A stretch of DNA of 64,000 nucleotides, taken from an uncultured virus (IMG/VR IMGVR_UViG_3300042868_013265). Its lineage: Duplodnaviria > Heunggongvirae > Uroviricota > Caudoviricetes. Shown piece after piece: positions 3,490 to 64,000 of this stretch. A program made the translations under genes and the position numbers. The notes beneath the pieces were generated by a model, which saw only the letters and a program-made list of their open reading frames with translations, was not told the DNA's origin and did not search any database. The first letter of the stretch is position 1. Each line of letters starts with the position of its first letter. The stretch is from IMG/VR virus record IMGVR_UViG_3300042868_013265, positions 1 through 64,000 of that record; one strand, given 5' to 3'.

Positions 3490-3670
3490 ATGTGTTCAGT
3501 AAGATTTGTTCTATCTGTTGGGAATATTCGCGCCTTACGGCCTCTTCTTTGTTTGTAAGTGGGATTCCTTTTTTGATTTGAAAAGCAATCATTATTAAAT
3601 ATTTATTATCAATATAACCTGTATTAATAAAAATATTCCAAGAATATGAATTAATTATTCCCTCAGCCAT
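3479..3670 (-). CDS. Hypothetical protein
   Basis: ATG ORF overlapping both neighbours in the operon. Confidence 0.5.
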   Translation of the reverse strand: MAEGIINSYSWNIFINTGYIDNKYLIMIAFQIKKGIPLTNKEEAVRREYSQQIEQILLNTYEK

Positions 3671-4900: not shown

Positions 4901-5805
4901 CCCTTTTTAAATATTTCTTTCAAAACCTGTTCCGCTGATATTTCTGAACTACAGCAAAACTCTTTTTCAGTTCCCTGATGCTTTGGGCACCAATACCAAT
5001 CACCCCTGTTAAAACTTATGCCATCGGTGGTCCAACAATGCCGACAATCCGAATTGCTTTCAATCCTTATGTGATTTTCGTTTGTGGGTCCAAATTCGTT
5101 TATGTCTTCTGCCCAAGGTGCAATCATAACAGTTTTTTTACCCATAGCCTTTGCCACCCAACTTAAACCACTTGATAAACCGATGTAGAATTCGCTGTGA
5201 GCGATTATATTCAAAACTTCGTCAAATGGTAAGCCAACTTTAATTACAGCGTGTTTGGGAGGCTCGTTCCAATTTGGGTCGACTCCAAAACCAAATTCTT
5301 TATCCACCATAACAGGAGTGACATCTATTTTACGCAACATATGACATAACTCGGCCCATCGTAATGAATATCTATTGTCCTTACGGTTTCCTGAATTCCA
5401 ATATTTTATTTGGGCTGTGGAATGGATACTAAAAGAAACGTATTTGTTTTGAATTGGACGATTCATTTCAGGGTACCAAATCTTTGGGTCAATGAAATCC
5501 CATTTGAATTCTGATTTAGGACATCCATTACCAAATAGTTGATAAGCAAAGCCCGCTTGAACGGGCATATCAAACAGGTAATCTAAGTATATGTCGGCAT
5601 TTATATCATCCACAAAATTTATTGTGGGATAAACGGGCTGCAGATATTTAATGAGCCAATGAGCACAGGAAAAATTCACAATGTCAAAAGGGCTGAATGC
5701 TTGATACTTTTCTACCACTGCTACACAGGCTAAAGTATCACCAAGAGCGTGAGTGTTACATTTTATGTTTTGGTATATCATTGGAAATAATGGCAAATTA
5801 TACAT
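4882..5805 (-). CDS. GT9-like / TibC-Aah-like (autotransporter heptosyltransferase-type) glycosyltransferase
   Basis: LGDTLA, IGLSSGLSWVAKAMG and C-terminal Cys cluster CRHCW...WYWCP...CSSEI. Confidence 0.7.
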   Translation of the reverse strand: MYNLPLFPMIYQNIKCNTHALGDTLACVAVVEKYQAFSPFDIVNFSCAHWLIKYLQPVYPTINFVDDINADIYLDYLFDMPVQAGFAYQLFGNGCPKSEFKWDFIDPKIWYPEMNRPIQNKYVSFSIHSTAQIKYWNSGNRKDNRYSLRWAELCHMLRKIDVTPVMVDKEFGFGVDPNWNEPPKHAVIKVGLPFDEVLNIIAHSEFYIGLSSGLSWVAKAMGKKTVMIAPWAEDINEFGPTNENHIRIESNSDCRHCWTTDGISFNRGDWYWCPKHQGTEKEFCCSSEISAEQVLKEIFKKGWIYHI

Positions 5806-44048: not shown

Positions 44049-44426
44049 ATGAATATTAAAAAAGATTTTTTTAAAGGAGTCAGTCTTTATGCTACCGAAT
44101 CTTCGGTTCAAGAAACAGAAGTGCAGGTTAGATTGACTATTGGTCAGACCGAATCTGAGCCTATTAATTATCAGTGGTGCATTAATTGGCAGCCCAATCG
44201 TGTTACTAATTATAACGAAGTAATGGGGCGCAAAATTATCAATATCACTGAGGCTTTAGTGGTTCCTATGTTGCATCAAGCAATGGTCAAGTGGGCAAGA
44301 ACGCTTGACATTTCATTTGAAGATTTCAGTGGTTTTTTGTTCAAAAAAGACGATGTTATTGGTGTTGCTATCTACGATAAGACAACTCCAAAAAAATTAT
44401 GTCCAATTGAAGAATTACTTGGATGA
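44049..44426 (+). CDS. Hypothetical protein
   Basis: ATG 44049, downstream of a TATATTTG -7 element (44021..44028). Confidence 0.6.
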   Translation: MNIKKDFFKGVSLYATESSVQETEVQVRLTIGQTESEPINYQWCINWQPNRVTNYNEVMGRKIINITEALVVPMLHQAMVKWARTLDISFEDFSGFLFKKDDVIGVAIYDKTTPKKLCPIEELLG

Positions 44427-45307
44427 GCATCAAAGTAGCACGAAGTTCACATTGGGTGATTCGAACTCTTGAAGGGAATGGTTTAGCCGTTTACTTAGGA
44501 GAAGATGAGCAAATTTATGTCAAAGACCAAAATGGGACCATTCAATTATTAAAAGAACTTCTCGGGTCGCTATCCTTAGATATTCCCGAAGGTGGTTTTC
44601 AAAGTGGAACTTCAGGAACATCGGGTAAAACAAACGGAACATCGGGCTCATCGGGAACGAGCGGTTCGAATGGTCAAGACGGAACATCAGGTCAAAACGG
44701 AGTCGATGGAACTTCAGGGTCATCAGGCTCATCAGGGAGTGCGGGTACGAGCGGGGTGGATGGAAGTTCAGGCTCTTCGGGTATTAGTGGTGTGGATGGA
44801 AGTTCAGGCTCTTCAGGAATTTCAGGTTTCAATGGTGTAGATGGTTCTTCGGGAACAAGCGGTAATGGTGGAACGAATGGTACGAGTGGTATTAATGGTA
44901 CCTCAGGTTCTTCGGGAAAAGATGGAGATATTGGGGTTAAAGGAAGTAATGGAACATCGGGTTCTTCGGGTATTTGCGGTTCCTCAGGTACAAGCGGTAA
45001 AGGATATTCTTTTGAAGAAATTGAAAGTCGTTCTAAGACAATATTGGATTTTACAAAAAGTCAAATACTTTCCTTAAATTTGAATAATAACACGACCCTA
45101 AATTTTGCAGGTTTTCCTGTCGGAATATTTTATCTGATTGTGAAGCAAGGTATTGGTAATTACAGTGTTAATTTGCCTTACGTTGTCAAACAACCAAAAG
45201 GTTTTGAATATGTTCCAAGCATTTACCCAAATGCTGTAGATGTGTTACAATTTATGTGCGATGGCACATCATTTTATGTGATTGACTGTAAAAAAGAATT
45301 GCAATGA
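44423..45307 (+). CDS. Short collagen-like (Gly-X-Y, Ser/Thr-rich) fibre protein
   Basis: GSSGTSG repeats between globular ends. Confidence 0.75.
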   Translation: MSIKVARSSHWVIRTLEGNGLAVYLGEDEQIYVKDQNGTIQLLKELLGSLSLDIPEGGFQSGTSGTSGKTNGTSGSSGTSGSNGQDGTSGQNGVDGTSGSSGSSGSAGTSGVDGSSGSSGISGVDGSSGSSGISGFNGVDGSSGTSGNGGTNGTSGINGTSGSSGKDGDIGVKGSNGTSGSSGICGSSGTSGKGYSFEEIESRSKTILDFTKSQILSLNLNNNTTLNFAGFPVGIFYLIVKQGIGNYSVNLPYVVKQPKGFEYVPSIYPNAVDVLQFMCDGTSFYVIDCKKELQ

Positions 45308-46071
45308 CCAATATTTTAACCACGAGTTTAGGAAGAAACATTAATACCGTAGAGGGTAATGGTCTTGCTATATTCGTTGACGACACGGATTTCGTGTTGA
45401 AGTTAAAAGACGTTGATGGCAATATACAACCTGTAACAGACTTCACAGGTAGCGGTGGAACGAGCGGTGGTGGAATACAATCCATCAATGCCTTGACAGC
45501 ACCCGCGCAATTTTTGGTGACAGGTACTTCAGGAAATGATTTTGCGGTACAGTCTTCAGGCAATACACATACCTTTAATTTGCCAAATGCGAGTACAAGC
45601 GCACGAGGTGTAGTTAGCACGGGCCCACAAACAATCAAAGGGATAAAAACATTTACAGACAATGCATTTTTTCAAGGCGATGTTGATATTTTAGGTACGC
45701 TTACAGCGGAAGCAAAATCGTTCTTGATTCCACACCCCGACCCTGACAAACAAGGGTGGGATTTACAACACGGAAACTTGGAGGGTGGCGAACACGGTAT
45801 TTATCACCGTGGCCGTCTTCAGGGGACAAATATGATATATCTACCTTCATATTGGAAGTTTTTGGTGAGTCAGCATACCATTACGGTACACTTGACAAGT
45901 GCCAAAGGCAACTTCAATTATTTCGTAGAAGATGTGACTTTAGAAACTATTAGAATTGCAAAATCCGAGGGTGATTGGTACTCTTATGATTGCTATTTTA
46001 TAATTCACGCTGAAAGACGAGATATTGGCAAATTGAAGGTGGAAATTACACCTCAAGAAAAGCAATATTGA
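45304..46071 (+). CDS. Fibre/spike-associated protein
   Basis: N-terminus paralogous to 44423; C-terminal KSFLIPHP...LEGGE..IYHRG...LPSYW...HAERRD, a type of domain seen in phage fibres. Confidence 0.6.
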   Translation: MTNILTTSLGRNINTVEGNGLAIFVDDTDFVLKLKDVDGNIQPVTDFTGSGGTSGGGIQSINALTAPAQFLVTGTSGNDFAVQSSGNTHTFNLPNASTSARGVVSTGPQTIKGIKTFTDNAFFQGDVDILGTLTAEAKSFLIPHPDPDKQGWDLQHGNLEGGEHGIYHRGRLQGTNMIYLPSYWKFLVSQHTITVHLTSAKGNFNYFVEDVTLETIRIAKSEGDWYSYDCYFIIHAERRDIGKLKVEITPQEKQY

Positions 46072-48047
46072 TGAAAAAAATACTCCATTTAATTCCTCAC
46101 CTGAGCACGGGTGGGTGCCCCCAATTCGCTTACGATTTATTAAGAAAAACCAAAGATACCACAGATGCTTATGTGGTTGAATATGCATTTATTGCTTGGG
46201 ACTATGTTGTGCAAAGAAATCGAATTATCGATTTGATGCAAGACAGATTTTTTTCTTTAGGAGAGCAGAAGGAGCAACTCTTTGACATTATTGATACGAT
46301 TAAGCCCGATGTCATTCATATTCAAGAATTCCCTGAATATTTTATGGACGATGAAATCGCGCGTAAATTGTACAATAAGAATCGAGAATATGTAATTGTA
46401 GAAACGAGTCACGACAGTGGATTTAATCCCGCGAATAAGCGGTTTTTCTCAGACCATTTAGCATTGATAAGCCAATGGCAAATTGATAAATTCAAGGATT
46501 ATGAAATACCGATTACTCTGTTAGAAAGTGACATTGAATACAAAACCAAAATTCCCAATCAGAGGGAACAAGGGTTATTAAAACTTGGATTGGACCCCAA
46601 TAAAAAACACGTTTTGAACGTGGGTCTTTGGACAAGTAGAAAAAACCAAGCGGAAGCCTTACAGTATGCGAAAGAACTTGAATGGTGTTCTGATATCCAA
46701 TTTCATTTTATTGGGAATCAGGCTCCTAATTTTGAGAATTATTGGGCTCCGTTGATGCACGACTTACCATCAAATGTGCAAGTTTGGGGTGAGAGGAGCG
46801 ATGTGCATTCATTTTATGAGTGTATGGACCTGTTCCTCTTCACATCGCGAGGCACAAATGGCGATATGGAAACAAGTCCGTTGGTTCTCAGAGAGGCAAC
46901 AGGACATCAAATGCCGATACTGATGTACAACCTCCCTGTGTATCTGAATTACTATGATAGGTTTTCGAACGTTAATTACCTCAGCGATTTCACAACCAAC
47001 AAAAATTTAATTTTGTCACTATTGAAAATTGAAGAAGAATCTTCAAGCGAATTATTCAAATTTGATTACGCAATTGCTGATAATAAAATTTTCATCAACT
47101 ATCAAAAAGACAGCAAAATCGAGGTTTGGTTTTCAATATGCGATACTGATACCAAACACGCAATTTATGCTTTCAAAGGGCAATTTGAATACAAATCTTC
47201 GATGTGGGTAATCCCTATCCCAAAAGATACTTTTGACACTATATACAACTCCAAAGGCAATTTCAGAGGTTTTGAAATATCTGTTTGGGACAGTTTGCAA
47301 GAGAACAAATTAGACAGCGAAATTATTTGGTTCAATCAGACTTTACCCATCCCAAATTTTAGAGTATTTGAAACAAATCCTTGGAATTTTACTTGGTCTA
47401 ATTACAATGAAATGTTCATTGATAAATATTATGAAAAAACCAACATTGTAGTTGGTAAGGTTTGCTTAGATATTGGGGCAAATGATGGTTTATTTACTGA
47501 ATGGTTAATTAGTCAAGGTGTTGAGAAAATTTATGCGATTGAATGCGACCCAAGGTGTATAAAATTTTTAAATAAAAAATTCAACTCAAATAAAAATGTG
47601 ACTGTAATAAACAAGGCTCTATGGAAAGAAAATCAAAGTGAAATGAAACTTTATTATGTTGATGACACCTCGGTTTTTAGTAGTTTGAAAGAAGAAGGTA
47701 ATTGTAAGGGTAAGAATTATTATGATGTTTGTTCTTGGGATTTTGAAACATTAATTAGTAAACACAACATCAATCAAATAGACTTATTTAAAATAGATAT
47801 CGAGGGTGCGGAATATGAAGTATTTGAATCGATGACTGATGAGCAAATTAGTAAAATAAATTCGTTTTTGATTGAAATCCATTTAAATACAAATGGTCAA
47901 GTTTATAAAATAACTGATAGATTCAAAATGTTAGGTTATGAAATACAGTTCAGAGAGCATAAAAATAACAGTTTGATAAATAATGAATTGGAATGGAAAA
48001 ATTATGAATGGGCTTATTTAACAGCAACCAAAAAAGTAAATTATTAA
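46068..48047 (+). CDS. GT4 glycosyltransferase fused to an FkbM methyltransferase
   Basis: HLSTGG, RKNQ, ETSPLVLREA; LDIGANDG, KIDIEGAE. Confidence 0.85.
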   Translation: MMKKILHLIPHLSTGGCPQFAYDLLRKTKDTTDAYVVEYAFIAWDYVVQRNRIIDLMQDRFFSLGEQKEQLFDIIDTIKPDVIHIQEFPEYFMDDEIARKLYNKNREYVIVETSHDSGFNPANKRFFSDHLALISQWQIDKFKDYEIPITLLESDIEYKTKIPNQREQGLLKLGLDPNKKHVLNVGLWTSRKNQAEALQYAKELEWCSDIQFHFIGNQAPNFENYWAPLMHDLPSNVQVWGERSDVHSFYECMDLFLFTSRGTNGDMETSPLVLREATGHQMPILMYNLPVYLNYYDRFSNVNYLSDFTTNKNLILSLLKIEEESSSELFKFDYAIADNKIFINYQKDSKIEVWFSICDTDTKHAIYAFKGQFEYKSSMWVIPIPKDTFDTIYNSKGNFRGFEISVWDSLQENKLDSEIIWFNQTLPIPNFRVFETNPWNFTWSNYNEMFIDKYYEKTNIVVGKVCLDIGANDGLFTEWLISQGVEKIYAIECDPRCIKFLNKKFNSNKNVTVINKALWKENQSEMKLYYVDDTSVFSSLKEEGNCKGKNYYDVCSWDFETLISKHNINQIDLFKIDIEGAEYEVFESMTDEQISKINSFLIEIHLNTNGQVYKITDRFKMLGYEIQFREHKNNSLINNELEWKNYEWAYLTATKKVNY

Positions 48048-48057
48048 AATTAAATAT

Positions 48058-49821
48058 ATGACAAACATAGCAACCCCTTTATTTAGAGTAGAGTATGAAA
48101 AAGACGGCAACAAAATTTTTGTTTACTATCAAAATGAAAAACCAATTGATGTAAGTATATCCGTAGCAGACATCGATTCAAAACACGCGATTTATGCATT
48201 TGACTCTCATTTTAGAGATTATTCAGGCTGTTGGAATGTTCCTGTACCTGTAGCCGCTTTGAATCATTACAATCGGACAGGATACTTTAGGGGATATGAG
48301 GTTTCGATTTACACTTCGGATAGACTTACTCTGTTGGAACAACATACGATTTGGTATAATGAAAACGCTCCAAAATTTGATAGAGTATTATTCCCTACTG
48401 ACCCTTGGAATTTGACTTGGATTAATTACACGGAAATGTTTGTTGAAGACTTCTACAACCCGCTTCAAATGAACATCAATGGAGTTTGTTTGGATATTGG
48501 CGCAAATGATGGTCTATACACAGAATATTTGCTTCGTAATGGAGCAGAACGGGTTTATGCAGTAGAATGTGACCCCCGTAGTATAAAGTTCCTTAACAAG
48601 CGTTTTAATGGCGATAAAAGGGTAGTTGTGGTTGACAAAGGATTATGGAATGCAAACCAAAATGGTGTAAAGTTGGCTTACAAAGAGGACACGAGCACAG
48701 TTTCATCTATCAAGACTGAAGTTCATCACTTTGATGAAAACAATTATTTTTACATTGATACTTGGGATTATGCGACTTTGAAGAGCAAAATGAATATCAG
48801 TAAAGTTGATTTTTTCAAGATTGATATTGAAGGTGCTGAATATGAAGTTTTCGAATCAATGACCGATGATGACATTTGTGAAATTGAAGGTTTTATGGTC
48901 GAGATTCATTGGAATTCAAATGGCCGTATTTATGGTATCACTGATAGACTTGAGAAATTAGGTTATTCAATTGAACTTCGCAGACATACGGTGGACAATG
49001 CCGTAGTAGAGAACCGTGACGAATGGAAAGATTACGACCTATGCACATTCTACGCTTCAAAAAAAAAAGAGCCACGGAAGTTTAGTTTAAGCATCCATCA
49101 TTTGCAAACGAGTCTTTTTACTGATGTTGAAAGGCAAAGTCGTGACAAAATTGATTATTTAATTCATTTGTTGAAGAAAGATTCTCGTTTTAGTGAGGTC
49201 TATTGGAGTCGTCATATCAATACTCCTTGGAAGGAATTACCAACTAAAGAGAATTGTAAAAGACCAAATGCGTTGTCGATGGAAAAATTTCCAAATGGCA
49301 TAAATGAATATGGAGAAACTGCGCTGACACCCGCTCACTATGGCTGCTTTAGAGCATTTAATGATGCTATTCAGATGCATTTCAACAAGGACTATTCAGC
49401 GACGTTGATATTTGAGGGTGACGCGGATATTCGAGATGTGTATTCGTTTATTGAATGCCTATACCTTGCCCTGTGTGAGGCAGACAAAAATGAAATAGAT
49501 TTCATTTCATTTGGAGGAGCGTATCATTTGGAGACAGGCGAATTATTAGCACATCCCGTGGAGAGAATTGATTCCTTAAATTTTGGGTGGATTTCAAAAC
49601 ACGTTCCATTTGCACATTCGATAATTATTCCTCAGAGATACATCAAACAGATGATGCACGCCTTTGCAACTGAGCCTTGGGATGTTGCTGATTTATTTTT
49701 TATGAATCATTTTAATATGCATCCAAACAGGAGACAATTTGTAAGCGAAATTCAACTGAGTCATCAAATTGATGGATATTCATTAATCGATAAAAAAGTC
49801 AAAAATTACTTAATCAAATGA
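48058..49821 (+). CDS. FkbM methyltransferase fused to a GT25-like glycosyltransferase
   Basis: LDIGANDG, KIDIEGAE; HYGCFRA...LIFEGDA. Confidence 0.75.
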   Translation: MTNIATPLFRVEYEKDGNKIFVYYQNEKPIDVSISVADIDSKHAIYAFDSHFRDYSGCWNVPVPVAALNHYNRTGYFRGYEVSIYTSDRLTLLEQHTIWYNENAPKFDRVLFPTDPWNLTWINYTEMFVEDFYNPLQMNINGVCLDIGANDGLYTEYLLRNGAERVYAVECDPRSIKFLNKRFNGDKRVVVVDKGLWNANQNGVKLAYKEDTSTVSSIKTEVHHFDENNYFYIDTWDYATLKSKMNISKVDFFKIDIEGAEYEVFESMTDDDICEIEGFMVEIHWNSNGRIYGITDRLEKLGYSIELRRHTVDNAVVENRDEWKDYDLCTFYASKKKEPRKFSLSIHHLQTSLFTDVERQSRDKIDYLIHLLKKDSRFSEVYWSRHINTPWKELPTKENCKRPNALSMEKFPNGINEYGETALTPAHYGCFRAFNDAIQMHFNKDYSATLIFEGDADIRDVYSFIECLYLALCEADKNEIDFISFGGAYHLETGELLAHPVERIDSLNFGWISKHVPFAHSIIIPQRYIKQMMHAFATEPWDVADLFFMNHFNMHPNRRQFVSEIQLSHQIDGYSLIDKKVKNYLIK

Positions 49822-51968
49822 GAATAGCACATATTCAACCAAGCGTAATTTCAGTCCCCCCTAACGGATGGGGGGCAATTGAAAAAATCATTTGGGAATA
49901 CAAAATGGTTTTGAATCAGTTAGGACACGTCTGCGAAGTAGTCAATTTGCAGGATTTGAAGGCTGAAGAATGGGATATCATCCATTGCCATATGTTTGAC
50001 CAAGCATTATGGTTGGCTGAACAAAAAGTTCCATATTTTTATTCGCACCACGACCATCATTCGATGGTTTGGGGTGAAGAAAGTGCTAATTATCAATTAA
50101 ATCTAAAAGCAATGAGACTTGCTGAGATTGCCTTTGTTCACGCACAAAGTAGTATTGAGATGTTTAAAAATATCCCTTATTATTTGAGTCACGGTGTGAA
50201 TACTGAATTCTTTGATTTTATAAGGCCGAAAAATATTGATGAACCGAATATTATTATTGTCGGGAACAATGGTTTGGCGGGAACTGAGCAAGTCTTTGAC
50301 CGAAAAGGTTTCAGGTATGCAATTGAGGCCGCACGTGAATTAAAATGGACAATTACTATGGTTGGTCCCAAAGCAACCCAAGAACAGTTTCTGAAGGAAA
50401 ATCCCGATTTGCAGTATGAAAAACTAAGGTTGGTTTTTGATGCGGACGAGGAGCGGTTGAAGAAAGAATTACAGAATGCTCATTTAATGATTCACGCTAC
50501 GTTTGTAGAGGCAGGTCATCCACCTTTAACACCTTTGGAAGCAATGTCTTGCGGGGTCCCTGTAATTGGTACACCAATGGGTATTGATGTGCCTCAAATA
50601 ATATGTGAAAGAACTACCGAAAGCGTAGTAGAAGGAATTAAACAATTCGTATTTCAAAGAAATTCATTAATTGCAGAAGCACGCCTAATTGCTGAAAATT
50701 ACGATTGGAAAATTATTGTTGAAAATAATTTATTGAAATGGTATTTTCAGGTCTTGGACCGAAACAATATGGCTAATACGGCCCGTAGAATTTACCATCA
50801 ATCGACCATAAATAAAGTGCAAGACACTATGATGTTCAAGTACTTAGATGGTGCGAGAGTGGATTTGGTTGGTAGTAGCGATAAAACGTATAAGGCCGAA
50901 CTTTCGGTTCGGGATGAGCACTTAGGAATTATTTTCAGTGCAGATTTAAAATGCGGTATGTATGCTCAGGGTGCAATGAAATATCATAGATATTGGGAAT
51001 GGAAAATTACGGATGAAAAAGGGAACGAATTTTTACATCCATATGATGCGACGGACAAACGTGTTTATGTGGCGATTGAAAGTTCAAGTTTAGGAGACTC
51101 TTTGGCTTGGGTCCCAATAGTTGATGAGTTTAGAAAGGTGCACAATTGCAAAATGATTATCAGCACTTTTTGGAACGATATGTTCAGGGATGCATACCCT
51201 GAAATGGAATTTATCAGGGCGGGAACACCCGTTAATAATATTTATGCAATGTACAGGATTGGTTGGTATTACGAGAACGACGGTTTAGAGGTACATTATG
51301 GACATCACTCACGCGATTTCCGCAAATTTTCTTTGCAAGGTACAGCCTGTGATATTTTAGGTCTTCCTGACATCGAAATAAAACCAAAATTAAAGGAAAT
51401 TGAAGGGCAAAAAAATGATAAAAAATATGTAGTTATTGCACCTCACGCTTCGAGCCATTGTAAATATTGGCACAACGAAGAAGGATGGTCTAAAGTTGTC
51501 GAATTTTTAAACGAGTTAGGTTATGAGGTTTGGAACATCTCAAAGGAGTCTGCATCAAGCGATTGGGAGAATTCTAAGTTGCCAAAAAATGCATTAAAAA
51601 ACGTAATTGATAAGACGGGAGACATACATATAGACGAAAGGATTTCTCAAATAAAATCCTCATCTTTGTTTATTGGATTAGGAAGCGGACTTTCTTGGTT
51701 GGCTTGGGCCTGTGATACACCTGTTGTTCTGATAAGTGGTTTCTCACGGCCTATAAGCGAATTTAGTGATTGCACCCGCGTTTTTAATCAAAATGTGTGT
51801 AATGGATGCTTTAACGATTACAGGCTTGACGCGGGTAATTGGAATTGGTGCCCTAAATATGAAAATACTGACAAAATGTATGAATGCAGTAAGTCAATTA
51901 CACCTGAACAGGTAATTGACGCAATTAGGAAAACACTAAACAAGCACCAAACAGCACCCGATGGCTAA
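49818..51968 (+). CDS. GT4 domain fused to a TibC/Aah-like protein O-glycosyltransferase domain
   Basis: PPNGWGAIE, EAGHPPLTPLEAM; then SSLGDSLAW, IGLGSGLSWLAWA, CNGC...WCP...EC. Confidence 0.8.
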   Translation: MRIAHIQPSVISVPPNGWGAIEKIIWEYKMVLNQLGHVCEVVNLQDLKAEEWDIIHCHMFDQALWLAEQKVPYFYSHHDHHSMVWGEESANYQLNLKAMRLAEIAFVHAQSSIEMFKNIPYYLSHGVNTEFFDFIRPKNIDEPNIIIVGNNGLAGTEQVFDRKGFRYAIEAARELKWTITMVGPKATQEQFLKENPDLQYEKLRLVFDADEERLKKELQNAHLMIHATFVEAGHPPLTPLEAMSCGVPVIGTPMGIDVPQIICERTTESVVEGIKQFVFQRNSLIAEARLIAENYDWKIIVENNLLKWYFQVLDRNNMANTARRIYHQSTINKVQDTMMFKYLDGARVDLVGSSDKTYKAELSVRDEHLGIIFSADLKCGMYAQGAMKYHRYWEWKITDEKGNEFLHPYDATDKRVYVAIESSSLGDSLAWVPIVDEFRKVHNCKMIISTFWNDMFRDAYPEMEFIRAGTPVNNIYAMYRIGWYYENDGLEVHYGHHSRDFRKFSLQGTACDILGLPDIEIKPKLKEIEGQKNDKKYVVIAPHASSHCKYWHNEEGWSKVVEFLNELGYEVWNISKESASSDWENSKLPKNALKNVIDKTGDIHIDERISQIKSSSLFIGLGSGLSWLAWACDTPVVLISGFSRPISEFSDCTRVFNQNVCNGCFNDYRLDAGNWNWCPKYENTDKMYECSKSITPEQVIDAIRKTLNKHQTAPDG

Positions 51969-57900: not shown

Positions 57901-60900
57901 GGTTCTTCGGGAACATCAGGGTCTTCAGGAACAAGCGGAAGCGCAGGTTCAAGCGGTTCTACAGGTTCTTCGGGCTCAAGTGGTACTGCAGGTTCTTCAG
58001 GAACATCGGCATCAAGTGGTAGCGCAGGAACTTCAGGTTCATCAGGAACTTCGGGTGCAAACGGTTCAAGCGGAACGAGCGGAAGCGCAGGTTCATCAGG
58101 AACCTCGGGCTCTTCAGGTTCTGCAGGAACTTCAGGTATAAATGGTTCTTCAGGAACATCGGGGTCTTCAGGGACATCGGGTTCTTCAGGTTCAAGTGGT
58201 TCAACAGGCTCAAGTGGAACAAGCGGTAGCGCGGGTTCAAGCGGTTCTACAGGTTCATCGGGCTCAAGCGGAACTGCGGGTTCATCAGGAACTTCAGGCG
58301 CAAATGGTTCTTCAGGAACGAGCGGAAGCGCAGGTTCATCAGGAACATCAGGTTCAAGCGGAACATCAGGAACTGCAGGTTCAAGCGGAACGTCGGGTAC
58401 AAGAGGTTCAAGTGGAACGAGTGGCAGCACAGGTTCAAGCGGTTCTACGGGTTCTTCAGGCACCTCAGGTTCTTCAGGAACTTCAGGAGCAAACGGTTCA
58501 TCAGGGACTTCAGGTTCAAGCGGAACAAGTGGTTCTGCGGGCTCTTCAGGCACTTCGGGTTCAAGCGGAACAAGCGGTAGCACAGGGTCAAGTGGGTCAA
58601 CAGGTTCAAGTGGCACAAGCGGTAGCGCAGGTTCTTCAGGAACATCAGGTTCTGCAGGTTCCTCAGGTACTTCAGGCGCAAATGGTTCAAGCGGAACAAG
58701 CGGAAGCGCAGGTTCTTCGGGTTCTACGGGCTCATCAGGTACCTCAGGTTCAAGCGGAACAAGCGGTAGCGCAGGCTCAAGCGGTTCTACAGGTTCAAGT
58801 GGAACATCAGGCTCGGCAGGTTCAAGTGGCTCAACAGGTTCATCAGGTTCTTCAGGAACTGCAGGCTCTTCAGGAACATCAGGAGCAAACGGCTCAAGTG
58901 GCACATCGGGCTCTTCAGGAAGCGCGGGCTCTTCGGGTTCTACAGGAAGTTCAGGAACCTCAGGTTCAAGTGGAACGAGCGGTAGCACAGGTTCTTCGGG
59001 TTCTACGGGCTCTTCAGGCACATCAGGCTCAAGCGGAACATCCGCGTCAAGTGGTTCTTCGGGTACATCGGGTTCCGCAGGTTCTTCAGGAACTTCGGGA
59101 GCAAATGGCTCTTCAGGAACTTCGGGCTCTGCAGGAAGTGCGGGCTCAAGCGGTTCAACAGGCTCTTCAGGCACATCAGGCTCAAGCGGAACATCAGGAA
59201 GTACGGGTTCAAGTGGCTCTACGGGTTCGTCAGGAACTTCGGGTTCTTCAGCAACATCAGGCTCTGCGGGTTCTTCGGGAACAGCAGGCTCGTCAGGTTC
59301 TTCGGGAACTTCGGGCGCAAACGGCTCAAGTGGTACTTCAGGTTCTGCAGGTTCTACAGGCTCAAGTGGTACTTCGGGCTCCTCAGGAACTTCGGGCACA
59401 GCGGGTTCAAGTGGTACTTCGGGCACAGCGGGTTCAAGTGGTACTTCAGGCACAAGGGGTTCGAGCGGTACTTCAGGAAGTACAGGCTCAAGCGGTTCTA
59501 CGGGTTCATCAGGAACGAGTGGTTCTTCAGGCACCTCGGGTGCAAACGGTTCAAGCGGAACTTCGGGTTCTTCAGGTAGTGCGGGGTCAAGTGGCTCTAC
59601 AGGCTCATCAGGAACTTCAGGTTCAAGCGGTACAAGTGGTAGTACAGGTTCTTCAGGCTCTACGGGTTCTTCAGGGACATCAGGTTCATCAGCAACTTCG
59701 GGCTCTGCAGGTTCGTCAGGGACTTCAGGAAGTGCGGGTTCATCAGGTACTTCGGGGGCAAATGGGTCGAGCGGAACAAGCGGTAGCGCAGGTTCTTCGG
59801 GTTCTACAGGTTCATCAGGAACCTCAGGTTCAAGCGGAACAAGCGGAAGTGCAGGCTCAAGCGGTTCAACGGGTTCAAGCGGAACATCAGGCTCTGCAGG
59901 TTCAAGTGGAACGAGCGGTTCTGCAGGTTCTTCAGGAAGTGCGGGCTCATCAGGTACATCAGGTGCAAATGGTTCAAGCGGAACAAGCGGAAGCGCGGGT
60001 TCTTCAGGAAGCACAGGTTCATCAGGAACATCGGGTTCTTCAGGAACAAGCGGTAGCACGGGTTCTTCGGGGTCTACAGGCTCAAGCGGAACAAGCGGTA
60101 GCGCAGGTTCTTCAGGAACATCGGCATCAAGTGGAAGTTCAGGAAGCGCAGGTACATCAGGAAGTTCAGGAACATCGGGGGCCAACGGCTCAAGCGGTAC
60201 TTCAGGTTCTGCAGGTAGTGCGGGCTCAAGTGGTTCTACAGGGTCAAGTGGTACTTCGGGTTCATCAGGAACAAGTGGTAGCACGGGTTCAAGTGGTTCT
60301 ACAGGCTCATCAGGAACTTCAGGTTCGAGTGGAACAAGTGGTAGTGCAGGTTCAAGCGGAACTTCAGGTTCTTCGGGAACTTCGGGCACAGCGGGGTCAA
60401 GCGGTACTTCAGGAACAAGAGGTTCGTCAGGAACTTCAGGTTCGACAGGTTCATCAGGTTCTACGGGCTCATCAGGTTCTACAGGAACTTCAGGCTCAAG
60501 CGGTTCGTCAGGAACTTCAGGAGCAAACGGTTCAAGTGGTACAAGCGGTAGTGCGGGCTCATCAGGTTCTACAGGTTCTTCAGGCACATCAGGCTCAAGC
60601 GGTACATCAGGAAGCGCGGGTTCAAGCGGCTCTACGGGGTCATCAGGAACATCAGGTTCTTCAGCAACTTCGGGTTCTGCAGGTTCATCAGGAACTGCAG
60701 GCTCTTCAGGTTCTTCGGGAACTTCAGGTGCAAATGGCTCAAGCGGTTCAAGCGGAACAAGTGGTAGTTCAGGTTCATCAGGCTCTACAGGTTCTTCAGG
60801 AACATCAGGTTCAAGCGGAACAAGCGGAAGCGCGGGTTCTTCGGGTTCAACGGGTTCAAGCGGTACAAGCGGCTCTTCAGGAACATCGGCATCAAGCGGA

Positions 60901-63900
60901 AGTTCAGGAAGCGCAGGCACATCAGGTAGTTCGGGTACTTCAGGAGCAAATGGTTCAAGTGGCTCAAGTGGAACAAGTGGTTCTTCAGGAAGCGCAGGTT
61001 CAACAGGGTCATCAGGTTCATCAGGAACTTCGGGTTCGAGCGGTACAAGTGGTTCAACAGGTTCAAGCGGCTCTACGGGCTCAAGTGGGTCTACGGGTAC
61101 ATCGGGTTCAAGCGGTTCAAGCGGAACTTCGGGAGTAAATGGTTCAAGTGGTTCATCAGGAACAAGTGGTAGTGCAGGTTCAAGTGGAACAAGTGGTTCT
61201 GCGGGTTCATCAGGAACATCAGGCTCTGCAGGCTCTTCGGGAACTTCAGGCACAGCGGGTTCAAGTGGAACATCAGGAACACGTGGTTCTTCAGGTTCAT
61301 CAGGCTCTACAGGTTCTTCAGGTACTTCGGGTTCATCAGGAACAAGTGGTAGCACGGGTTCATCAGGCTCTACAGGTTCAAGCGGAACGTCGGGCTCATC
61401 AGGAACATCAGCATCAAGCGGAAGTTCAGGAAGCGCGGGTACATCGGGCTCAAGCGGAACTTCAGGAGCAAATGGCTCGTCAGGTACTTCGGGCTCTTCA
61501 GGAAGTGCGGGCTCAAGCGGTTCAACAGGTTCTTCGGGCACATCAGGCTCAAGCGGTACATCAGGAAGCGCGGGTTCAAGTGGTTCTACAGGTTCTTCGG
61601 GAACAAGCGGTAGCGCAGGTTCTTCAGGCACATCGGGTTCTGCAGGCTCGTCAGGCACGTCAGGTGCAAATGGCTCAAGTGGTACTTCGGGGTCTGCGGG
61701 TAGTGCGGGTTCATCGGGCTCTACGGGTTCATCAGGGACATCAGGTTCAAGCGGTACATCAGGAAGCGCAGGTTCTTCAGGCTCTACAGGTTCTTCAGGA
61801 ACGAGTGGTAGCGCGGGTTCTTCAGGTACATCAGGTTCTGCGGGCTCTTCAGGCACATCAGGTGCAAACGGTTCAAGTGGTACAAGCGGAAGCGCAGGTT
61901 CAAGCGGTTCTACGGGTTCGAGCGGTACGAGCGGGTCAAGCGGAACAAGTGGTAGTACAGGTTCAAGCGGTTCAACAGGCTCAAGTGGAACAAGCGGAAG
62001 CACAGGCTCTTCAGGCACATCGGGCTCGGCAGGTTCTTCAGGAACATCAGGCTCGGCAGGTTCTTCAGGAACATCAGGCACAGCAGGTTCGAGTGGTACT
62101 TCAGGAACACGTGGTTCTTCAGGTTCATCAGGTTCTACAGGAACGAGCGGTTCAAGCGGAACAAGCGGTAGCACAGGTTCAAGCGGTTCAACGGGTTCGA
62201 GCGGAACAAGTGGAAGTACAGGTTCTTCAGGCTCTACAGGCTCAAGTGGAACATCAGGTTCAAGCGGAACAAGTGGAAGCACAGGTTCAAGCGGCTCAAC
62301 GGGTTCAAGTGGTACTTCGGGTTCATCAGGAACATCAGCATCAAGCGGAAGTTCAGGAAGTGCGGGTACCTCAGGTAGTTCAGGCACTTCAGGGGCAAAT
62401 GGGTCGAGTGGCTCAAGCGGAACAGCAGGTTCTTCAGGAAGCGCAGGTTCTTCGGGTTCTACAGGTTCTTCAGGAACAAGCGGTTCATCAGGAACAAGTG
62501 GTAGCGCAGGTTCTTCAGGCTCTACAGGCTCAAGCGGAACAAGCGGTAGCGCAGGTTCATCAGGCACATCGGGTTCTGCAGGCTCTTCAGGCACATCAGG
62601 TGCAAATGGTTCAAGTGGCACAAGCGGTTCAAGCGGAAGCGCAGGTTCTTCGGGTTCTACAGGAAGTTCAGGAACCTCAGGTTCAAGTGGCACAAGTGGT
62701 AGCACAGGTTCAAGCGGGTCAACAGGTTCAAGCGGAACGAGCGGTAGCGCAGGTTCTTCAGGAACATCAGGCTCGGCAGGTTCTTCAGGAACATCAGGCA
62801 CAGCGGGCTCTTCAGGCACGTCAGGCACAGCAGGTTCAAGTGGTACTTCGGGAACACGTGGTTCTTCAGGTTCATCAGGTTCTACAGGAACAAGCGGTTC
62901 AAGCGGAACAAGTGGAAGCACAGGCTCAAGCGGCTCTACAGGCTCAAGTGGTACTTCGGGTTCGTCAGGAACATCGGCATCAAGTGGAAGTTCAGGAAGT
63001 GCGGGTACCTCAGGTAGTTCAGGCACTTCAGGGGCAAATGGCTCGAGTGGCTCAAGCGGAACATCAGGGTCTTCAGGAAGCGCAGGTTCTTCAGGTTCTA
63101 CAGGTTCTTCGGGAACAAGCGGTTCATCAGGAACAAGTGGTAGCACGGGCTCAAGCGGTTCTACAGGCTCAAGTGGGTCTACGGGAACATCGGGCTCAAG
63201 CGGAACTTCAGGGGTAAATGGGTCAAGTGGTTCTTCAGGAACTTCGGGTTCTGCGGGCTCATCAGGAACGTCAGGTTCTGCGGGCTCTTCGGGAACGAGC
63301 GGAAGCGCAGGTTCAAGCGGAAGCACAGGTTCATCAGGTTCTACAGGCTCATCAGGAACGTCGGGTTCTGCGGGCTCATCAGGAACGTCAGGTTCTGCGG
63401 GCTCTTCGGGAACTTCAGGCACAGCAGGTTCAAGTGGAACATCAGGAACTCGAGGTTCTTCAGGTTCATCAGGTTCTACAGGCACTTCAGGCTCAAGCGG
63501 AACAAGTGGAAGCACAGGTTCAAGCGGGTCAACGGGCTCAAGCGGAACAAGTGGAAGTACAGGTTCAAGCGGTTCGACAGGTTCAAGTGGAACAAGTGGA
63601 AGTACAGGTTCATCGGGTTCTACGGGTTCAAGCGGTACGAGTGGCTCATCAGGAACATCGGCATCAAGCGGAAGTTCAGGAAGTGCAGGTACGTCAGGTA
63701 GTTCAGGAACATCAGGAGCAAACGGCTCATCAGGCTCATCAGGAACTGCAGGTTCGTCAGGTAGCGCAGGTTCTACAGGTTCTTCAGGTTCCTCAGGAAC
63801 TTCGGGTTCATCAGGAACAAGCGGAAGCGCGGGTTCAACAGGTTCATCGGGCTCAAGTGGGTCTACGGGAACATCGGGCTCAAGTGGCTCAAGCGGTACA

Positions 63901-64000
63901 TCAGGTGCAAATGGCTCGAGCGGCTCAAGCGGAACAAGCGGTAGTGCGGGCTCATCAGGAACTTCGGGTTCTGCAGGCTCATCAGGAACGTCAGGTTCTG
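51961..64000 (+). CDS. Giant collagen-like Gly-X-Y fibre protein with a C1q/TNF-like domain (3'-partial, >4,013 aa, absent from ORF track)
   Basis: ATG at 51961 (MAKNILITPY...); no in-frame stop seen to the window end; C1q-like segment at about 53401..53850 (GIYEFTFSPQ, IRKNG, NDFIEL, PAAPSIIV). Confidence 0.88.
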   Translation, partial: MAKNILITPYRNSTNPLELPKIDFINGSTAITLQVEETSQSLTFVGSAGTLLQINNDLTGTTISTKNIAITGVIKNTGITSNSGLNDFVVVDIATGQFYYRSAPTGTSGSSGQSGTSGTSGANGSSGTSGASGSSGTSGANGSSGTSGANGSSGTSGVNGTSGTSASSGTSGANGSSGTSGDSGSSGTSGANGSSGTSGANGSSGTSGANGSSGTSGNSGSSGTSGANGSSGTSGESGSSGTSGSNGSSGTSGSSGTSGNSGSSGTSGDSGSSGTSGANGTSGTSGESGSSGTSGNSGSSGTSGNSGSSGTSGANGSSGTSGASGAEITDGWDWGTPVNSTKMYSSNGNLDSSTVLLNISETSLSLTDYASQFALMGVGSRITTRGGLFAANVTNWEVTSVTDAGTYYEFGVVYLSGTQWTPTSGDDILCDFAIAGKSGSSGTAGTSGQNGSSGTSGANGTSGTAGTTGSSGTSGAGVANYYAQYSSSQSQPLLAVNTPQVVTYDTVEIENGISFSGGQITVQYSGIYEFTFSPQVEKTQGGTAVNVDFFIRKNGFDVIRTDSILGLVSNSSTQLPFVALTLELLQNDFIELLFASTTTFVQLTAVGAKTTPFIAPAAPSIIVSLKNIGVAAVAYTSTSGTSGQSGTAGVSGSSGTSGSTGSSGTSGESGTSGTSGSTGSSGTSGENGSSGTSGSTGSSGTSGESGSSGTSGENGSSGTSGSAGSSGTSGSTGSSGTSGESGSSGTSGSSGTSASSGTSGSTGSSGTSGSAGSSGTSGSTGSSGTSGESGSSGTSGSTGSSGTSGESGSSGTSGESGSSGTSGDSGSSGTSGESGSSGTSGESGSSGTSGESGSSGTSGTSASSGTSGSTGSSGTSGENGSSGTSGSTGTSGSSGSSGTSGENGSSGTSGESGTSGTSGSSGSTGTSGSAGTSGSTGTSGSTGSSGTSGSSGTSGENGSSGTSGSAGSSGTSGENGSSGTSGSSGTSGSTGTSGESGTSGTAGSSGSTGTSGSAGTSGSTGTSGSAGSSGTSGSSGTSGENGSSGTSGSTGSSGTSGSTGTSGSTGTSGSSGSTGSSGSSGESGTSGSTGTSGSTGSSGTSGESGTSGTTGSSGSTGSSGTSGSSGTSASSGTSGSSGINGSSGTSGSTGTSGSAGTSGANGSSGTSGSAGSSGTSGSTGSSGTSGSSGTSASSGSSGSSGSTGSSGTSGSSGTSGANGSSGTSGSAGSSGTSGSTGSSGTSGSSGTSASSGSSGSTGSSGTSGSAGSSGTSGANGSSGTSGSSATSGSAGSSGSAGTSGSSATSGSSGSSGTSGSSGTSGANGSSGTSGSSGTSGSTGSSGTSGANGSSGTSGSSGTSGSAGSSGSTGSSGTSGSSGTSGSAGSSGSTGSSGTSGSSGSSGTSGANGSSGTAGSSGTSGSSGTSGSAGSSGTSGANGSSGTAGSSGTSGSAGSSGSAGTSGANGSSGTSGSSGSSGSTGSSGTSGSSGSTGTSGSSGTSASSGTSGSSGSAGTSGANGSSGTSGSSGSSGSTGSSGTSGANGSSGTSGSAGSSGSTGSSGTSGSSGTSGSTGSSGSAGTSGSSATSGSSGSSGTSGSAGTSGANGSSGTSGSSGTSGSTGSSGSAGTSGANGSSGTSGSTGSSGTSGSAGSSGSTGSSGTSGSTGSSGSTGSSGTSGSSGTSGSAGSSGSAGTSGANGSSGTSGSSGTSGNAGSSGTSGSSGSSGSAGTSGSTGSSGTSGSAGSSGTSGSAGSSGSTGSSGTSGANGSSGTSGSSGTSGSTGSSGSSGSTGSSGTSGSSGTSGSTGSSGSTGSSGTSGSAGSSGTSGANGSSGTSGSSGTSGSTGSSGTAGSSGTSGTRGSSGTSGSTGSSGSTGSSGTSGSSGTSGSAGSSGSAGTSGANGSSGTSGSSGTSGSTGSSGSSGSTGTSGTAGSSGTSGSAGSSGSTGSSGSSGTAGSSGTSGANGSSGTSGSSGSSGSTGSSGTSGSSGTSGSAGSSGSTGSSGSSGTAGSSGTSASSGSAGTSGSSGTSGANGSSGTSGSAGSSGTSGSSGSAGTSGINGSSGTSGSSGTSGSSGSSGSTGSSGTSGSAGSSGSTGSSGSSGTAGSSGTSGANGSSGTSGSAGSSGTSGSSGTSGTAGSSGTSGTRGSSGTSGSTGSSGSTGSSGTSGSSGTSGANGSSGTSGSSGTSGSAGSSGTSGSSGTSGSTGSSGSTGSSGTSGSAGSSGTSGSAGSSGTSGANGSSGTSGSAGSSGSTGSSGTSGSSGTSGSAGSSGSTGSSGTSGSAGSSGSTGSSGSSGTAGSSGTSGANGSSGTSGSSGSAGSSGSTGSSGTSGSSGTSGSTGSSGSTGSSGTSGSSGTSASSGSSGTSGSAGSSGTSGANGSSGTSGSAGSAGSSGSTGSSGTSGSSGTSGSTGSSGSTGSSGTSGSSATSGSAGSSGTAGSSGSSGTSGANGSSGTSGSAGSTGSSGTSGSSGTSGTAGSSGTSGTAGSSGTSGTRGSSGTSGSTGSSGSTGSSGTSGSSGTSGANGSSGTSGSSGSAGSSGSTGSSGTSGSSGTSGSTGSSGSTGSSGTSGSSATSGSAGSSGTSGSAGSSGTSGANGSSGTSGSAGSSGSTGSSGTSGSSGTSGSAGSSGSTGSSGTSGSAGSSGTSGSAGSSGSAGSSGTSGANGSSGTSGSAGSSGSTGSSGTSGSSGTSGSTGSSGSTGSSGTSGSAGSSGTSASSGSSGSAGTSGSSGTSGANGSSGTSGSAGSAGSSGSTGSSGTSGSSGTSGSTGSSGSTGSSGTSGSSGTSGSAGSSGTSGSSGTSGTAGSSGTSGTRGSSGTSGSTGSSGSTGSSGSTGTSGSSGSSGTSGANGSSGTSGSAGSSGSTGSSGTSGSSGTSGSAGSSGSTGSSGTSGSSATSGSAGSSGTAGSSGSSGTSGANGSSGSSGTSGSSGSSGSTGSSGTSGSSGTSGSAGSSGSTGSSGTSGSSGTSASSGSSGSAGTSGSSGTSGANGSSGSSGTSGSSGSAGSTGSSGSSGTSGSSGTSGSTGSSGSTGSSGSTGTSGSSGSSGTSGVNGSSGSSGTSGSAGSSGTSGSAGSSGTSGSAGSSGTSGTAGSSGTSGTRGSSGSSGSTGSSGTSGSSGTSGSTGSSGSTGSSGTSGSSGTSASSGSSGSAGTSGSSGTSGANGSSGTSGSSGSAGSSGSTGSSGTSGSSGTSGSAGSSGSTGSSGTSGSAGSSGTSGSAGSSGTSGANGSSGTSGSAGSAGSSGSTGSSGTSGSSGTSGSAGSSGSTGSSGTSGSAGSSGTSGSAGSSGTSGANGSSGTSGSAGSSGSTGSSGTSGSSGTSGSTGSSGSTGSSGTSGSTGSSGTSGSAGSSGTSGSAGSSGTSGTAGSSGTSGTRGSSGSSGSTGTSGSSGTSGSTGSSGSTGSSGTSGSTGSSGSTGSSGTSGSSGTSGSTGSSGSTGSSGTSGSSGTSASSGSSGSAGTSGSSGTSGANGSSGSSGTAGSSGSAGSSGSTGSSGTSGSSGTSGSAGSSGSTGSSGTSGSAGSSGTSGSAGSSGTSGANGSSGTSGSSGSAGSSGSTGSSGTSGSSGTSGSTGSSGSTGSSGTSGSAGSSGTSGSAGSSGTSGTAGSSGTSGTAGSSGTSGTRGSSGSSGSTGTSGSSGTSGSTGSSGSTGSSGTSGSSGTSASSGSSGSAGTSGSSGTSGANGSSGSSGTSGSSGSAGSSGSTGSSGTSGSSGTSGSTGSSGSTGSSGSTGTSGSSGTSGVNGSSGSSGTSGSAGSSGTSGSAGSSGTSGSAGSSGSTGSSGSTGSSGTSGSAGSSGTSGSAGSSGTSGTAGSSGTSGTRGSSGSSGSTGTSGSSGTSGSTGSSGSTGSSGTSGSTGSSGSTGSSGTSGSTGSSGSTGSSGTSGSSGTSASSGSSGSAGTSGSSGTSGANGSSGSSGTAGSSGSAGSTGSSGSSGTSGSSGTSGSAGSTGSSGSSGSTGTSGSSGSSGTSGANGSSGSSGTSGSAGSSGTSGSAGSSGTSGS
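52276..52935 (+). repeat. Gly-X-Y coding repeat block 1 (about 73 triplets)
   Basis: GTS/GSS/GAN units. Confidence 0.9.
53878..64000 (+). repeat. Main Gly-X-Y coding repeat (about 1,120 triplets, continues past the window)
   Basis: 9-nt periodicity; Gly codons at 53878, 58081 and 63967 share the same register modulo 9. Confidence 0.95.

Follow-up and report, generated by a model that had tools for sequence, protein, structure and literature searches.

The closest described counterparts of the locus analyzed here are the Escherichia coli pairs TibC-TibA and Aah-AIDA-I, in which the gene of a glycosyltransferase of the bacterial autotransporter heptosyltransferase (BAHT) family lies directly before the gene of a long, repetitive, Ser-rich surface protein (structures 4RAP and 4RB4; PMC4358343). 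According to the structural account of TibC, this enzyme uses ADP-heptose as its donor and modifies Ser, not Thr (PMC4358343). We describe here a viral relative from IMG/VR record IMGVR_UViG_3300042868_013265, the 84,420-bp genome of an uncultured virus of the Caudoviricetes whose first 64 kb (64,000 nt) are the window of this analysis. In this window, three fusion enzymes, one of them with a TibC/Aah-type domain, are encoded between two proteins built from Gly-Ser/Thr triplets, the second of which is a giant fibre of 5,338 amino acids (aa). We think, with some reserve, that this cassette is probably a virus-encoded system for protein O-glycosylation that acts on the Gly-Ser/Thr triplet fibre proteins of the same virus; this reading builds on the gene layout, the family membership of the enzymes, the conservation of catalytic and donor-contacting residues, and the genomic pairing of one enzyme clade with such repeats. 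The viral enzyme shares with TibC and Aah the family, the fold (an N-terminal beta-barrel plus a GT-B core), the four-Cys iron finger, the catalytic Asp, the donor contacts, and its gene position directly before the repetitive partner. It differs from them in belonging to a sister clade, in being fused to a glycosyltransferase (GT) domain of family GT4, in an unlike thumb tip, and in being encoded by a virus, and its partner is a Gly-X-Y triplet protein and not an AIDA-type beta-helix; its donor and acceptor are putative.

The repeats of the BclA spore protein contain proline, whereas the main repeats of the viral fibre do not. BclA and the related Bcl proteins of Bacillus and Clostridioides are Thr-rich Gly-X-Y filaments with O-linked sugars and non-collagen ends that form a surface nap (PMC8968730), and the BclA glycan includes a 2-O-methylated sugar (PMC6222408), which parallels the FkbM methyltransferase domains of the viral cassette. 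The collagen regions quoted for Bcl proteins range from 27 to 1,158 residues compared with 4,533 in one run of the fibre, and the same source describes no TibC-type enzyme for BclA (PMC8968730). Mycobacteriophage virions are glycosylated by phage enzymes at the C-termini of capsid and tail-tube subunits (PMC12619734, citing Freeman 2023), i.e., phage glycosyltransferases decorate the phage's own structural proteins as proposed here, but the account given there mentions neither a collagen-like fibre as target nor an enzyme of the BAHT type. Mimivirus is reported to hydroxylate and glycosylate its own collagen (PMC8968730). A full-text literature search found no paper that ties BAHT enzymes to phages or to collagen-like repeats.

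The record carries perfect 127-bp inverted terminal repeats at genome positions 1-127 and 84294-84420 and has a CheckV completeness estimate of 100%, so we take it to be a complete linear viral genome. A tight chain of plus-strand genes spans position 44037 to at least genome position 68654 and includes the cassette with its flanking repeat proteins:

44423..45307, plus strand: small collagen-like protein of 294 aa, made of Gly-Ser/Thr triplets (GTSGSSGTSG...); Pfam Collagen 2.7e-17.
45304..46071, plus strand: protein of 255 aa without a named function; phrog_28536 3.1e-27 and phrog_17490 8.5e-24 (both of unknown function).
46068..48047, plus strand: fusion of a GT4 domain, a middle domain of ~130 aa and an FkbM domain, 659 aa (Pfam, TIGR01444).
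48058..49821, plus strand: fusion of an N-terminal domain of ~130 aa, an FkbM domain and a GT25-like domain of GT-A type, 587 aa.
49818..50813, plus strand: GT4 part of a 716-aa fusion enzyme (Glyco_trans_1_4, Glycos_transf_1).
50814..51968, plus strand: TibC/Aah-type O-heptosyltransferase domain, residues 333-716 of the same 716-aa protein (TIGR04414).
51961..64000, plus strand: giant fibre gene, still open at the end of the window and continuing to genome position 67977; 5,338 aa.

The genes are packed with 4-nt overlaps at 44423/44426, 45304/45307, 46068/46071 and 49818/49821 and a 10-nt gap at 48047/48058. The first-pass annotation, made from the letters of this DNA and a list of its open reading frames, had described three fusion enzymes (GT4-FkbM, FkbM-GT25-like and GT4-TibC-like) flanked by Gly-Ser/Thr fibre genes, the last of them overlapping the start codon of the giant fibre, and gene layout and domain matches bear this out: read directly, the fibre gene starts with its ATG at 51961 and shares 8 nt with the end of the TibC-like gene, whose TAA stop occupies 51966-51968. 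Through this overlap, the GT4-TibC gene and the fibre gene are predicted to be translationally coupled. A promoter and terminator scan of positions 43000-53000 found no excess over shuffled sequences, with 30 promoter-like sites against 32.4 expected and 11 terminator-like sites against 6.7. The 294-aa protein at the head of the block also matches PHROG tail-fibre families (e.g., phrog_6320 at 2.5e-18) and is a candidate second acceptor beside the giant fibre, while the 255-aa protein that follows it matches no Pfam family below E 0.01.

A search with the hidden Markov model of the autotransporter heptosyltransferases, TIGR04414 (hepto_Aah_TibC), a check suggested in the first-pass annotation, came out in favour of that annotation: the C-terminal domain of the 716-aa protein scores 302.5 bits (cut-off 200; E = 3.9e-90), with the match covering residues 333-705 and positions 7-373 of the 374 of the profile. 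Among solved structures, TibC (4rap) was matched at 4.5e-54, and an AlphaFold model built on an alignment of 26 relatives (predicted local distance difference test, pLDDT, 87.1) superposes on it with template-modelling (TM) scores of 0.84/0.85 and a root-mean-square deviation of 3.2 Å. The same model reaches a TM score of only 0.50 with the lipopolysaccharide (LPS) heptosyltransferase WaaF (1psw) and 0.39-0.47 with WaaC, the range being 0.39-0.53 when another GT9 enzyme is included. In TibC, Asp110 is the catalytic base, Thr226, Lys230, Arg286 and Trp305 contact ADP-heptose, and Cys339, 342, 358 and 370 are the iron ligands (PMC4358343). The alignment to 4rap puts D427, S545 (Ser for Thr), K549, R608 and W627 of the viral protein at the first five of these positions, and C661, C664, C678 and C690 match the cysteines of the iron finger, where iron binding is predicted. 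Given the TIGR04414 score, the gap in TM scores to WaaC and WaaF, and the retained D, K, R, W and four Cys, the domain is, as far as sequence and model can tell, a protein glycosyltransferase by family and not an LPS one. We also considered the position of Pro300, a stereoselectivity residue of TibC, as a marker of the donor sugar and rejected it because Gly is usual there in both clades of the family introduced below (25/26 rows in clade A and 79/86 in clade B); the 716-aa protein likewise has Gly. Its other half belongs to GT4 (Glyco_trans_1_4 1e-10 and Glycos_transf_1 3.9e-10 at residues 159-272), and of 18 long TibC-bearing frames that were tested from other loci, 14 combine GT4 with TibC in the same way.

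The pairing of TibC-like genes with Gly-Ser/Thr proteins was followed across viral and bacterial genomes. We scored as a Gly-Ser/Thr frame any frame with at least 30 residues in runs of at least eight Gly-X-Y triplets in which X and Y are at least 55% Ser/Thr and Pro makes up at most 6%. For viruses, a profile-guided scan of 2.9 million viral contigs yielded at least 584 stretches with TibC relatives, the best 80 of which were analyzed. Overall, 41 of 86 viral TibC domains have a Gly-Ser/Thr frame at the same locus; the share is 35/44 where at least 3 kb of flank is available on both sides, 26/31 with at least 6 kb and 15/18 with at least 9 kb, and all these counts include near-duplicates and relatives of the window itself. 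The repeats lie on the same strand 1-5 kb upstream of the TibC domain in 25 cases, on the opposite strand downstream in seven, and directly downstream, i.e., in the arrangement of the window, in five. All five large TibC-bearing phage genomes tested contain such repeats (a reversed control pattern gave no match), at distances of 4.5-19, 7.5-16.5, 18-26, ~100 and ~147-168 kb.

The pairing is also found in a cultured phage, Microcystis phage Mel-JY01 (PP395634, 190 kb), on which we found no paper. One of its proteins, 1,226 aa long and annotated as "methyltransferase FkbM", holds GT4 and TibC-type domains, and ~1.8 kb upstream of the gene, on the same strand, lies an open frame that is packed with GTSGSSGTSGTRG repeats and at least 999 residues long. 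This repeat frame (L326 2-2998, plus strand) is annotated as two hypothetical proteins on the minus strand (1-651 and 739-2298). Because Mel-JY01 is cultured and shows the same pairing, it makes the idea directly testable. In the huge phage LR756501, a GT4-TibC gene that matches 98% of the query at 37% identity is likewise accompanied, 3.7 kb away, by a 699-aa frame with 87 repeat residues.

Bacterial genomes are the most independent evidence for the pairing of enzyme and repeat. In a set of one genome per species, 148 stretches with TibC relatives were found, and 79 loci were retained. The TibC gene mostly lies within ~1.1 kb of a small protein that combines GTSGTSGTAG-type repeats with a signal peptide or a lipobox in methanotrophs, Polaromonas-like Burkholderiales, Arenicellales and uncultured Gammaproteobacteria, and this protein is encoded on either strand and on either side of the enzyme gene. 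Such a partnership in bacteria rules out that the enzyme merely hitch-hikes with phage fibre genes. The gene is followed instead by an AIDA-type autotransporter in enterobacteria, Oxalobacter, Elusimicrobia and others, with AIDA repeats found by Pfam in seven cases and the beta-domain in three.

A maximum-likelihood tree of 112 de-duplicated TibC-type domains separates these two partnerships into two clades, with 100 support in the Shimodaira-Hasegawa-like approximate likelihood ratio test (SH-aLRT). Clade A consists of 26 rows, all from bacterial assemblies, of which 11 were labelled as AIDA-adjacent by phmmer, 15 have neither partner and none stands beside repeats. Clade B comprises the other 86 rows, i.e., all 56 viral ones and 30 from bacterial assemblies; none of these stands beside AIDA, while 32/56 viral and 18/30 bacterial-assembly rows stand beside Gly-Ser/Thr repeats. 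The 716-aa enzyme falls into clade B, so that the TibC-like label of the first-pass annotation holds for the family as defined by TIGR04414 and fails for the adhesin clade itself, to which the viral enzyme is a sister with another genomic partner. No Pfam match to autotransporter families was found in the genome frames scanned. Within clade B, the catalytic and contact residues D, K and W are kept in 86/86 rows and R in 60/86. For the bacterial-assembly rows, a Fisher test of clade against partner gives 4e-07, a value that overstates their independence because the rows are not independent; on the tree, none of 500 shuffled labellings got by with as few changes as the observed one. The sole internal control for the base rate of Gly-Ser/Thr frames is provided by the clade-A bacterial loci (0/26). 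A few labels are imperfect, as two of the 11 "AIDA" labels in clade A (both Acetobacter) show only a Hint domain by Pfam and two clade-B rows scored as having neither partner (L246 and L259) do carry Gly-Ser/Thr repeats, below the threshold.

Two groups of loci in the tree deserve separate mention. In Acetobacter (L308 11155-14319 and L317 11149-13848), clade-A TibC relatives are followed by large Hint-domain proteins, possibly a third type of acceptor. Three contigs filed under bacterial metagenome-assembled genomes (L242, L243 and L244; Winogradskyella, Flavobacteriales and Rickettsiaceae) carry TibC relatives together with large Gly-Ser/Thr fibre frames; L242 and L243 belong to the main viral subclade, and L244 is placed next to viral rows. 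Phage contigs that ended up in bacterial bins are the probable explanation for all three, and L242 and L243 are counted among the 18 bacterial-assembly rows above.

Several observations weigh against the proposed O-glycosylation of the fibre. Among de-duplicated viral rows with full flanks, only six of nine carry repeats; of the other three, two have collagen frames that contain proline, and the third has a single short run of this kind. When the search was started from the repeats, using a degenerate DNA pattern for six Gly-Ser/Thr triplets that matched at least 156 stretches, TibC was present in the fetched flank of only six of the 64 distinct viral contigs among the matches listed and just outside it in two more, and a further 76 stored repeat loci contain no TibC relative; most Gly-Ser/Thr fibres thus have no TibC gene nearby. 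The two largest distances in the large phage genomes (~100 and ~147-168 kb), and to a lesser degree the 18-26 kb of a third, are far from the tight arrangement of the window, and the TibC relative of LR756504 has no Gly-Ser/Thr frame within 15 kb. Co-occurrence, which the first-pass annotation had put forward as a check, is therefore real in both phages and bacteria without being a universal linkage. As for the enzyme, the thumb tip that TibC needs to form its dodecamer (Phe265 and Val266; PMC4358343) is not conserved and reads W583/E584 in the viral protein, with clade B showing mostly W-H or a gap at this site and clade A mostly Y-G. TibC itself is described as acting on a folded beta-helix and on Ser only (PMC4358343), so that a collagen-like chain would be a very different acceptor. 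Genes for ADP-heptose synthesis were not found, as neither rfaE domain II nor gmhA has a match in the genome (and among five genomes searched, gmhA was found in none and rfaE domain II in one, as a single match below the cut-off); the donor would therefore have to come from the host. Finally, GT9, GT25 and GT4 are also typical families of LPS enzymes, as their Pfam descriptions state.

This last point would fit enzymes that remodel the host envelope, i.e., the LPS core or O-chain, a capsule or a surface protein, e.g., to block superinfection, and that lie next to fibre genes merely because both belong to the variable host-interaction region. Glycosyltransferases in the tail-fibre region of pelagimyophages have been viewed in this way in the literature, as modifiers of the host O-chain (PMC7029224). 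The genome as a whole encodes up to ~9 GT domains and 5 FkbM domains, some of them far from the fibre, and the two large phages with TibC ~100 kb or more from the repeats point in the same direction. Still, the enzyme passes the equivalog cut-off for protein heptosyltransferases and resembles TibC far more (TM 0.84) than WaaC or WaaF (0.39-0.50), its clade-B relatives in bacteria lie within ~1 kb of small Gly-Ser/Thr proteins outside of any phage context, and the TibC-like gene overlaps the fibre start by 8 nt. We therefore consider envelope remodelling rather unlikely as the role of the cassette and continue to favour modification of the fibre.

The fibre itself starts with an N-terminal domain (residues 1-105) and then alternates between Gly-X-Y regions (106-327, 436-474 and 640-5172, together 4,794 residues) and non-repeat, globular ones (328-435 and 475-639). 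The domain that follows residue 5172 contains Peptidase_S74, which in phage fibres and spikes serves as a self-cleaving trimerization chaperone (4.4e-16, in the last 300 aa), in a region that PHROG tail-fibre families match as well, and the first 1000 aa match Pfam Collagen at 9.7e-87. Ser accounts for 40% of the residues (2118), Gly for 30% and Thr for 14% (755), with only 15 Pro and 27 Lys. In its main region (residues 640-5172, i.e., 4,533 residues or 1,511 triplets), Gly occupies every third position in a single phase with only 22 substitutions, all of them to Ala; GSS, GTS, GST and GSA account for the majority of triplets, and Ser or Thr stands at X in 1,374 of 1,489 triplets and at Y in 1,212 of 1,489. 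Pro is absent from the X and Y positions of this region and charged residues are rare, so that the known stabilizers of collagen, Pro/Hyp or charged and polar networks of the Scl2 type, are missing; glycans could fill this gap. The minus-strand frames at 53889-63515 and 52296-52892 (up to 3,208 aa and rich in Pro, Glu and Val) are antisense shadows of the Gly-X-Y repeat and not genes.

The lack of proline and of nearly all charge in the repeats, and with it of the stabilizers known from bacterial collagens (PMC8968730), could also mean that the fibre is not glycosylated at all, or that it is a disordered Ser/Thr linker and the TibC-like enzyme modifies another protein; the 56 of 64 listed repeat-bearing contigs without a TibC gene nearby would fit such a lack of any functional link. 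We regard this as improbable, since a disordered linker would not need 1,511 triplets in one phase with only Gly-to-Ala changes and the fibre ends in a trimerizing S74 chaperone domain. Moreover, the DNA repeats are degenerate (65-87% matches) and five Ser codons are used heavily, which indicates selection on the protein pattern and argues against a recent or artefactual expansion, and the association between clade and partner holds in the tree.

The same features bear on the possibility that the giant frame is an assembly artefact and the true gene much shorter. The fibre gene is a 13.6-kb, internally repetitive array that makes up 19% of the genome and comes from metagenome assemblies. Yet the distance from the TibC domain to the unique 3' end of the fibre gene is the same in three near-identical records (G000, G001 and G005) and just 135 bp (45 aa) shorter in a fourth (G002), and a relative with 88% identity over the TibC domain has a fibre version of 4,184 aa. 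With imperfect DNA repeats, perfect 127-bp terminal repeats and a CheckV estimate of 100% in addition, we consider an artefact highly improbable.

The triple helix rises 0.286 nm per residue. If all 4,794 Gly-X-Y residues of the fibre formed such a helix, the thread would be ~1.37 micrometres long (range ~1.3-1.4), a length without precedent, and its longest collagen run alone is about four times the longest quoted for bacteria.

In the two FkbM fusions of the cassette, FkbM domains are recognized by TIGR01444 at 81.4 bits in the 659-aa protein and 67.1 bits in the 587-aa protein (cut-off 37.7), and the former additionally matches Glycos_transf_1 at 4.8e-08 (residues 172-299) and Methyltransf_21 at 6.2e-13. 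In both proteins, FkbM is preceded by a domain of ~130 aa (47055-47447, i.e., residues 330-460 of the 659-aa protein, and 48058-48477) that looks similar by eye and has no Pfam match even at E 10; it may be a substrate-binding module. The C-terminal 268 aa of the 587-aa protein have no Pfam match either, PF01755 included, even at E 10. A search of 1.84 billion representatives gave 158 relatives at E <= 0.001, most of them built into larger (500-1,500-aa) multi-enzyme proteins, and PF01755 is matched by 8 of 32 aligned relatives (best 1.5e-05); a protein atlas leads from this domain to GT25 clusters. Its AlphaFold2 model (pLDDT 91.4) finds human COLGALT1 as the best Foldseek match (3.9e-09, TM 0.55), and the top seven matches are COLGALT1 or unnamed glycosyltransferase entries (3.9e-09 to 1.4e-07, TM 0.53-0.58), followed by Mimivirus R655 and R699 with other GT-A families close behind. 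An acidic E-x-D pair (E134 and D136) is invariant in the alignment. "GT25-like", as the domain had been called, thus seems a fair label at the level of the fold, and for some relatives by PF01755, and not one of family membership, as a direct Pfam match is absent. The likeness to COLGALT1/GLT25D1 and the Mimivirus enzymes is accordingly one of fold only, at 13-17% identity, and hydroxylysine is the acceptor of the animal enzymes, but Lys is scarce in the fibre (27 of 5,338 residues).

It is conceivable that roles are split within the cassette, such that only the GT4-TibC protein acts on the fibre and both FkbM fusions build a methylated glycan elsewhere, be it on a different virion protein, on a lipid carrier or on a polymer of the host. 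Recurrence across loci speaks for the GT4-TibC pairing, for which it was examined (the 14 of 18 frames mentioned above), the relatives of the GT25-like domain are mostly parts of multi-enzyme proteins, and a second block of GT and FkbM genes lies 40 kb away in the genome. On the other hand, the three enzyme genes form one packed block on the same strand between two repeat proteins, with 4-nt overlaps and the 10-nt gap; Mel-JY01 unites GT4 and TibC beside its repeat gene in the single 1,226-aa protein annotated as FkbM; and collagen galactosyltransferases head the fold matches of the GT25-like domain. A division of labour of this kind thus has a small chance of being correct, and we prefer a joint action of all three enzymes on the fibre.

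TibC-family enzymes work in the cytoplasm, and virion proteins are made there too. The protein modified, the sugar used, the sequence in which the enzymes act, the formation of a triple helix and the benefit of the coat (stabilization of the helix, hydration or protection) are inferred, and we picture them as follows. In the host cytoplasm, the TibC-type domain would transfer a sugar from an ADP-activated donor, most likely ADP-heptose made by the host, onto serines in the GSS and GTS triplets of the giant fibre (5,338 residues); the 294-residue protein would probably receive it too. The first-pass annotation had this domain prime Ser and Thr; Ser is the better-founded part, with Thr as a perhaps, given that TibC is described as acting on Ser and not Thr (PMC4358343). 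The transfer would probably take place before the chains zip into a trimer, by analogy with animal collagen, where modification must come before trimer formation (PMC8968730). The fused GT4 domain and the GT4-FkbM and FkbM-GT25-like proteins may then extend and O-methylate the glycan, and the S74 chaperone domain at the C-terminus would trimerize the fibre chains. The product would be a heavily glycosylated, proline-free, collagen-type thread of the virion, up to ~1.3-1.4 micrometres long.

Glycosylated Thr stabilizes the Pro-poor cuticle collagen of Riftia. A broader idea, which we put forward tentatively and think somewhat doubtful, is that the whole sister clade of TibC, in hundreds of phages and several bacterial lineages, is dedicated to Gly-Ser/Thr repeats and that sugars replace hydroxyproline in proline-free helices. 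If true, these enzymes and their partners would form a microbial "glyco-collagen" system with which an 84-kb virus builds a thread of more than 1 micrometre, and this thread could act as a long-range line for host capture. Glycosylation of the viral fibre would extend an enzyme family known only from bacterial adhesins to viruses and to collagen-type triplet acceptors, and would offer a possible answer to the question of how proline-free collagen-like repeats, which are common in the fibres of aquatic phages, are stabilized. It would also challenge the usual view of glycosyltransferases in phage fibre regions as modifiers of host LPS or phage DNA, and a sugar-stabilized, proline-free collagen would be of interest for biomaterials.

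With its C-terminal Peptidase_S74, the fibre resembles the phage fibres and spikes of the endosialidase type that use S74 chaperones; it differs from them in a collagen-type shaft of unprecedented length and in the virus that encodes it. In this genome, Pfam and PHROG scans recognized no HK97 capsid, portal, tail, sheath or protein-primed polymerase gene, and a search of PHROGs at E 1 for virion hallmarks gave a weak nuclease half of a terminase as its sole match (34090-34911, phrog_2666, E 0.0011). "Tail fibre" was therefore rejected as a name for the giant fibre. A 325-aa gene before the nuclease half may encode the ATPase half of the large terminase, and a 1,094-aa protein of the genome had no match by tblastn against 50,697 phage records.

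The remaining sugar enzymes of the genome and a further collagen-like protein are the following:

139..5805, minus strand: second sugar-enzyme block with a weak GT2-like match (below the Pfam cut-off), a GT2, a glycosyltransferase recognized by PHROG only, and two FkbM.
10612-11247, plus strand: GT2 gene.
12193-13419, plus strand: GT4 gene (Pfam and PHROG).
16658..18088, plus strand: third collagen-like protein, 476 aa, with ~50 Gly-Ser-Gln triplets; Pfam Collagen 5e-16.
Genome 83635-84276, plus strand: further GT/FkbM gene or genes.

The GT2 and GT4 genes at 10612-13419 are matched by phrog_29879 (1.6e-23) and phrog_2170 (1e-39) in addition to Pfam. The Gly-Ser-Gln triplets of the 476-aa protein are of a different type from the Gly-Ser/Thr triplets of the fibre. 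Finally, the gene at 27676-28791 joins a DUF2958 domain to a RelA/SpoT nucleotide pyrophosphokinase domain (3.8e-16) and possibly encodes a viral alarmone synthetase.

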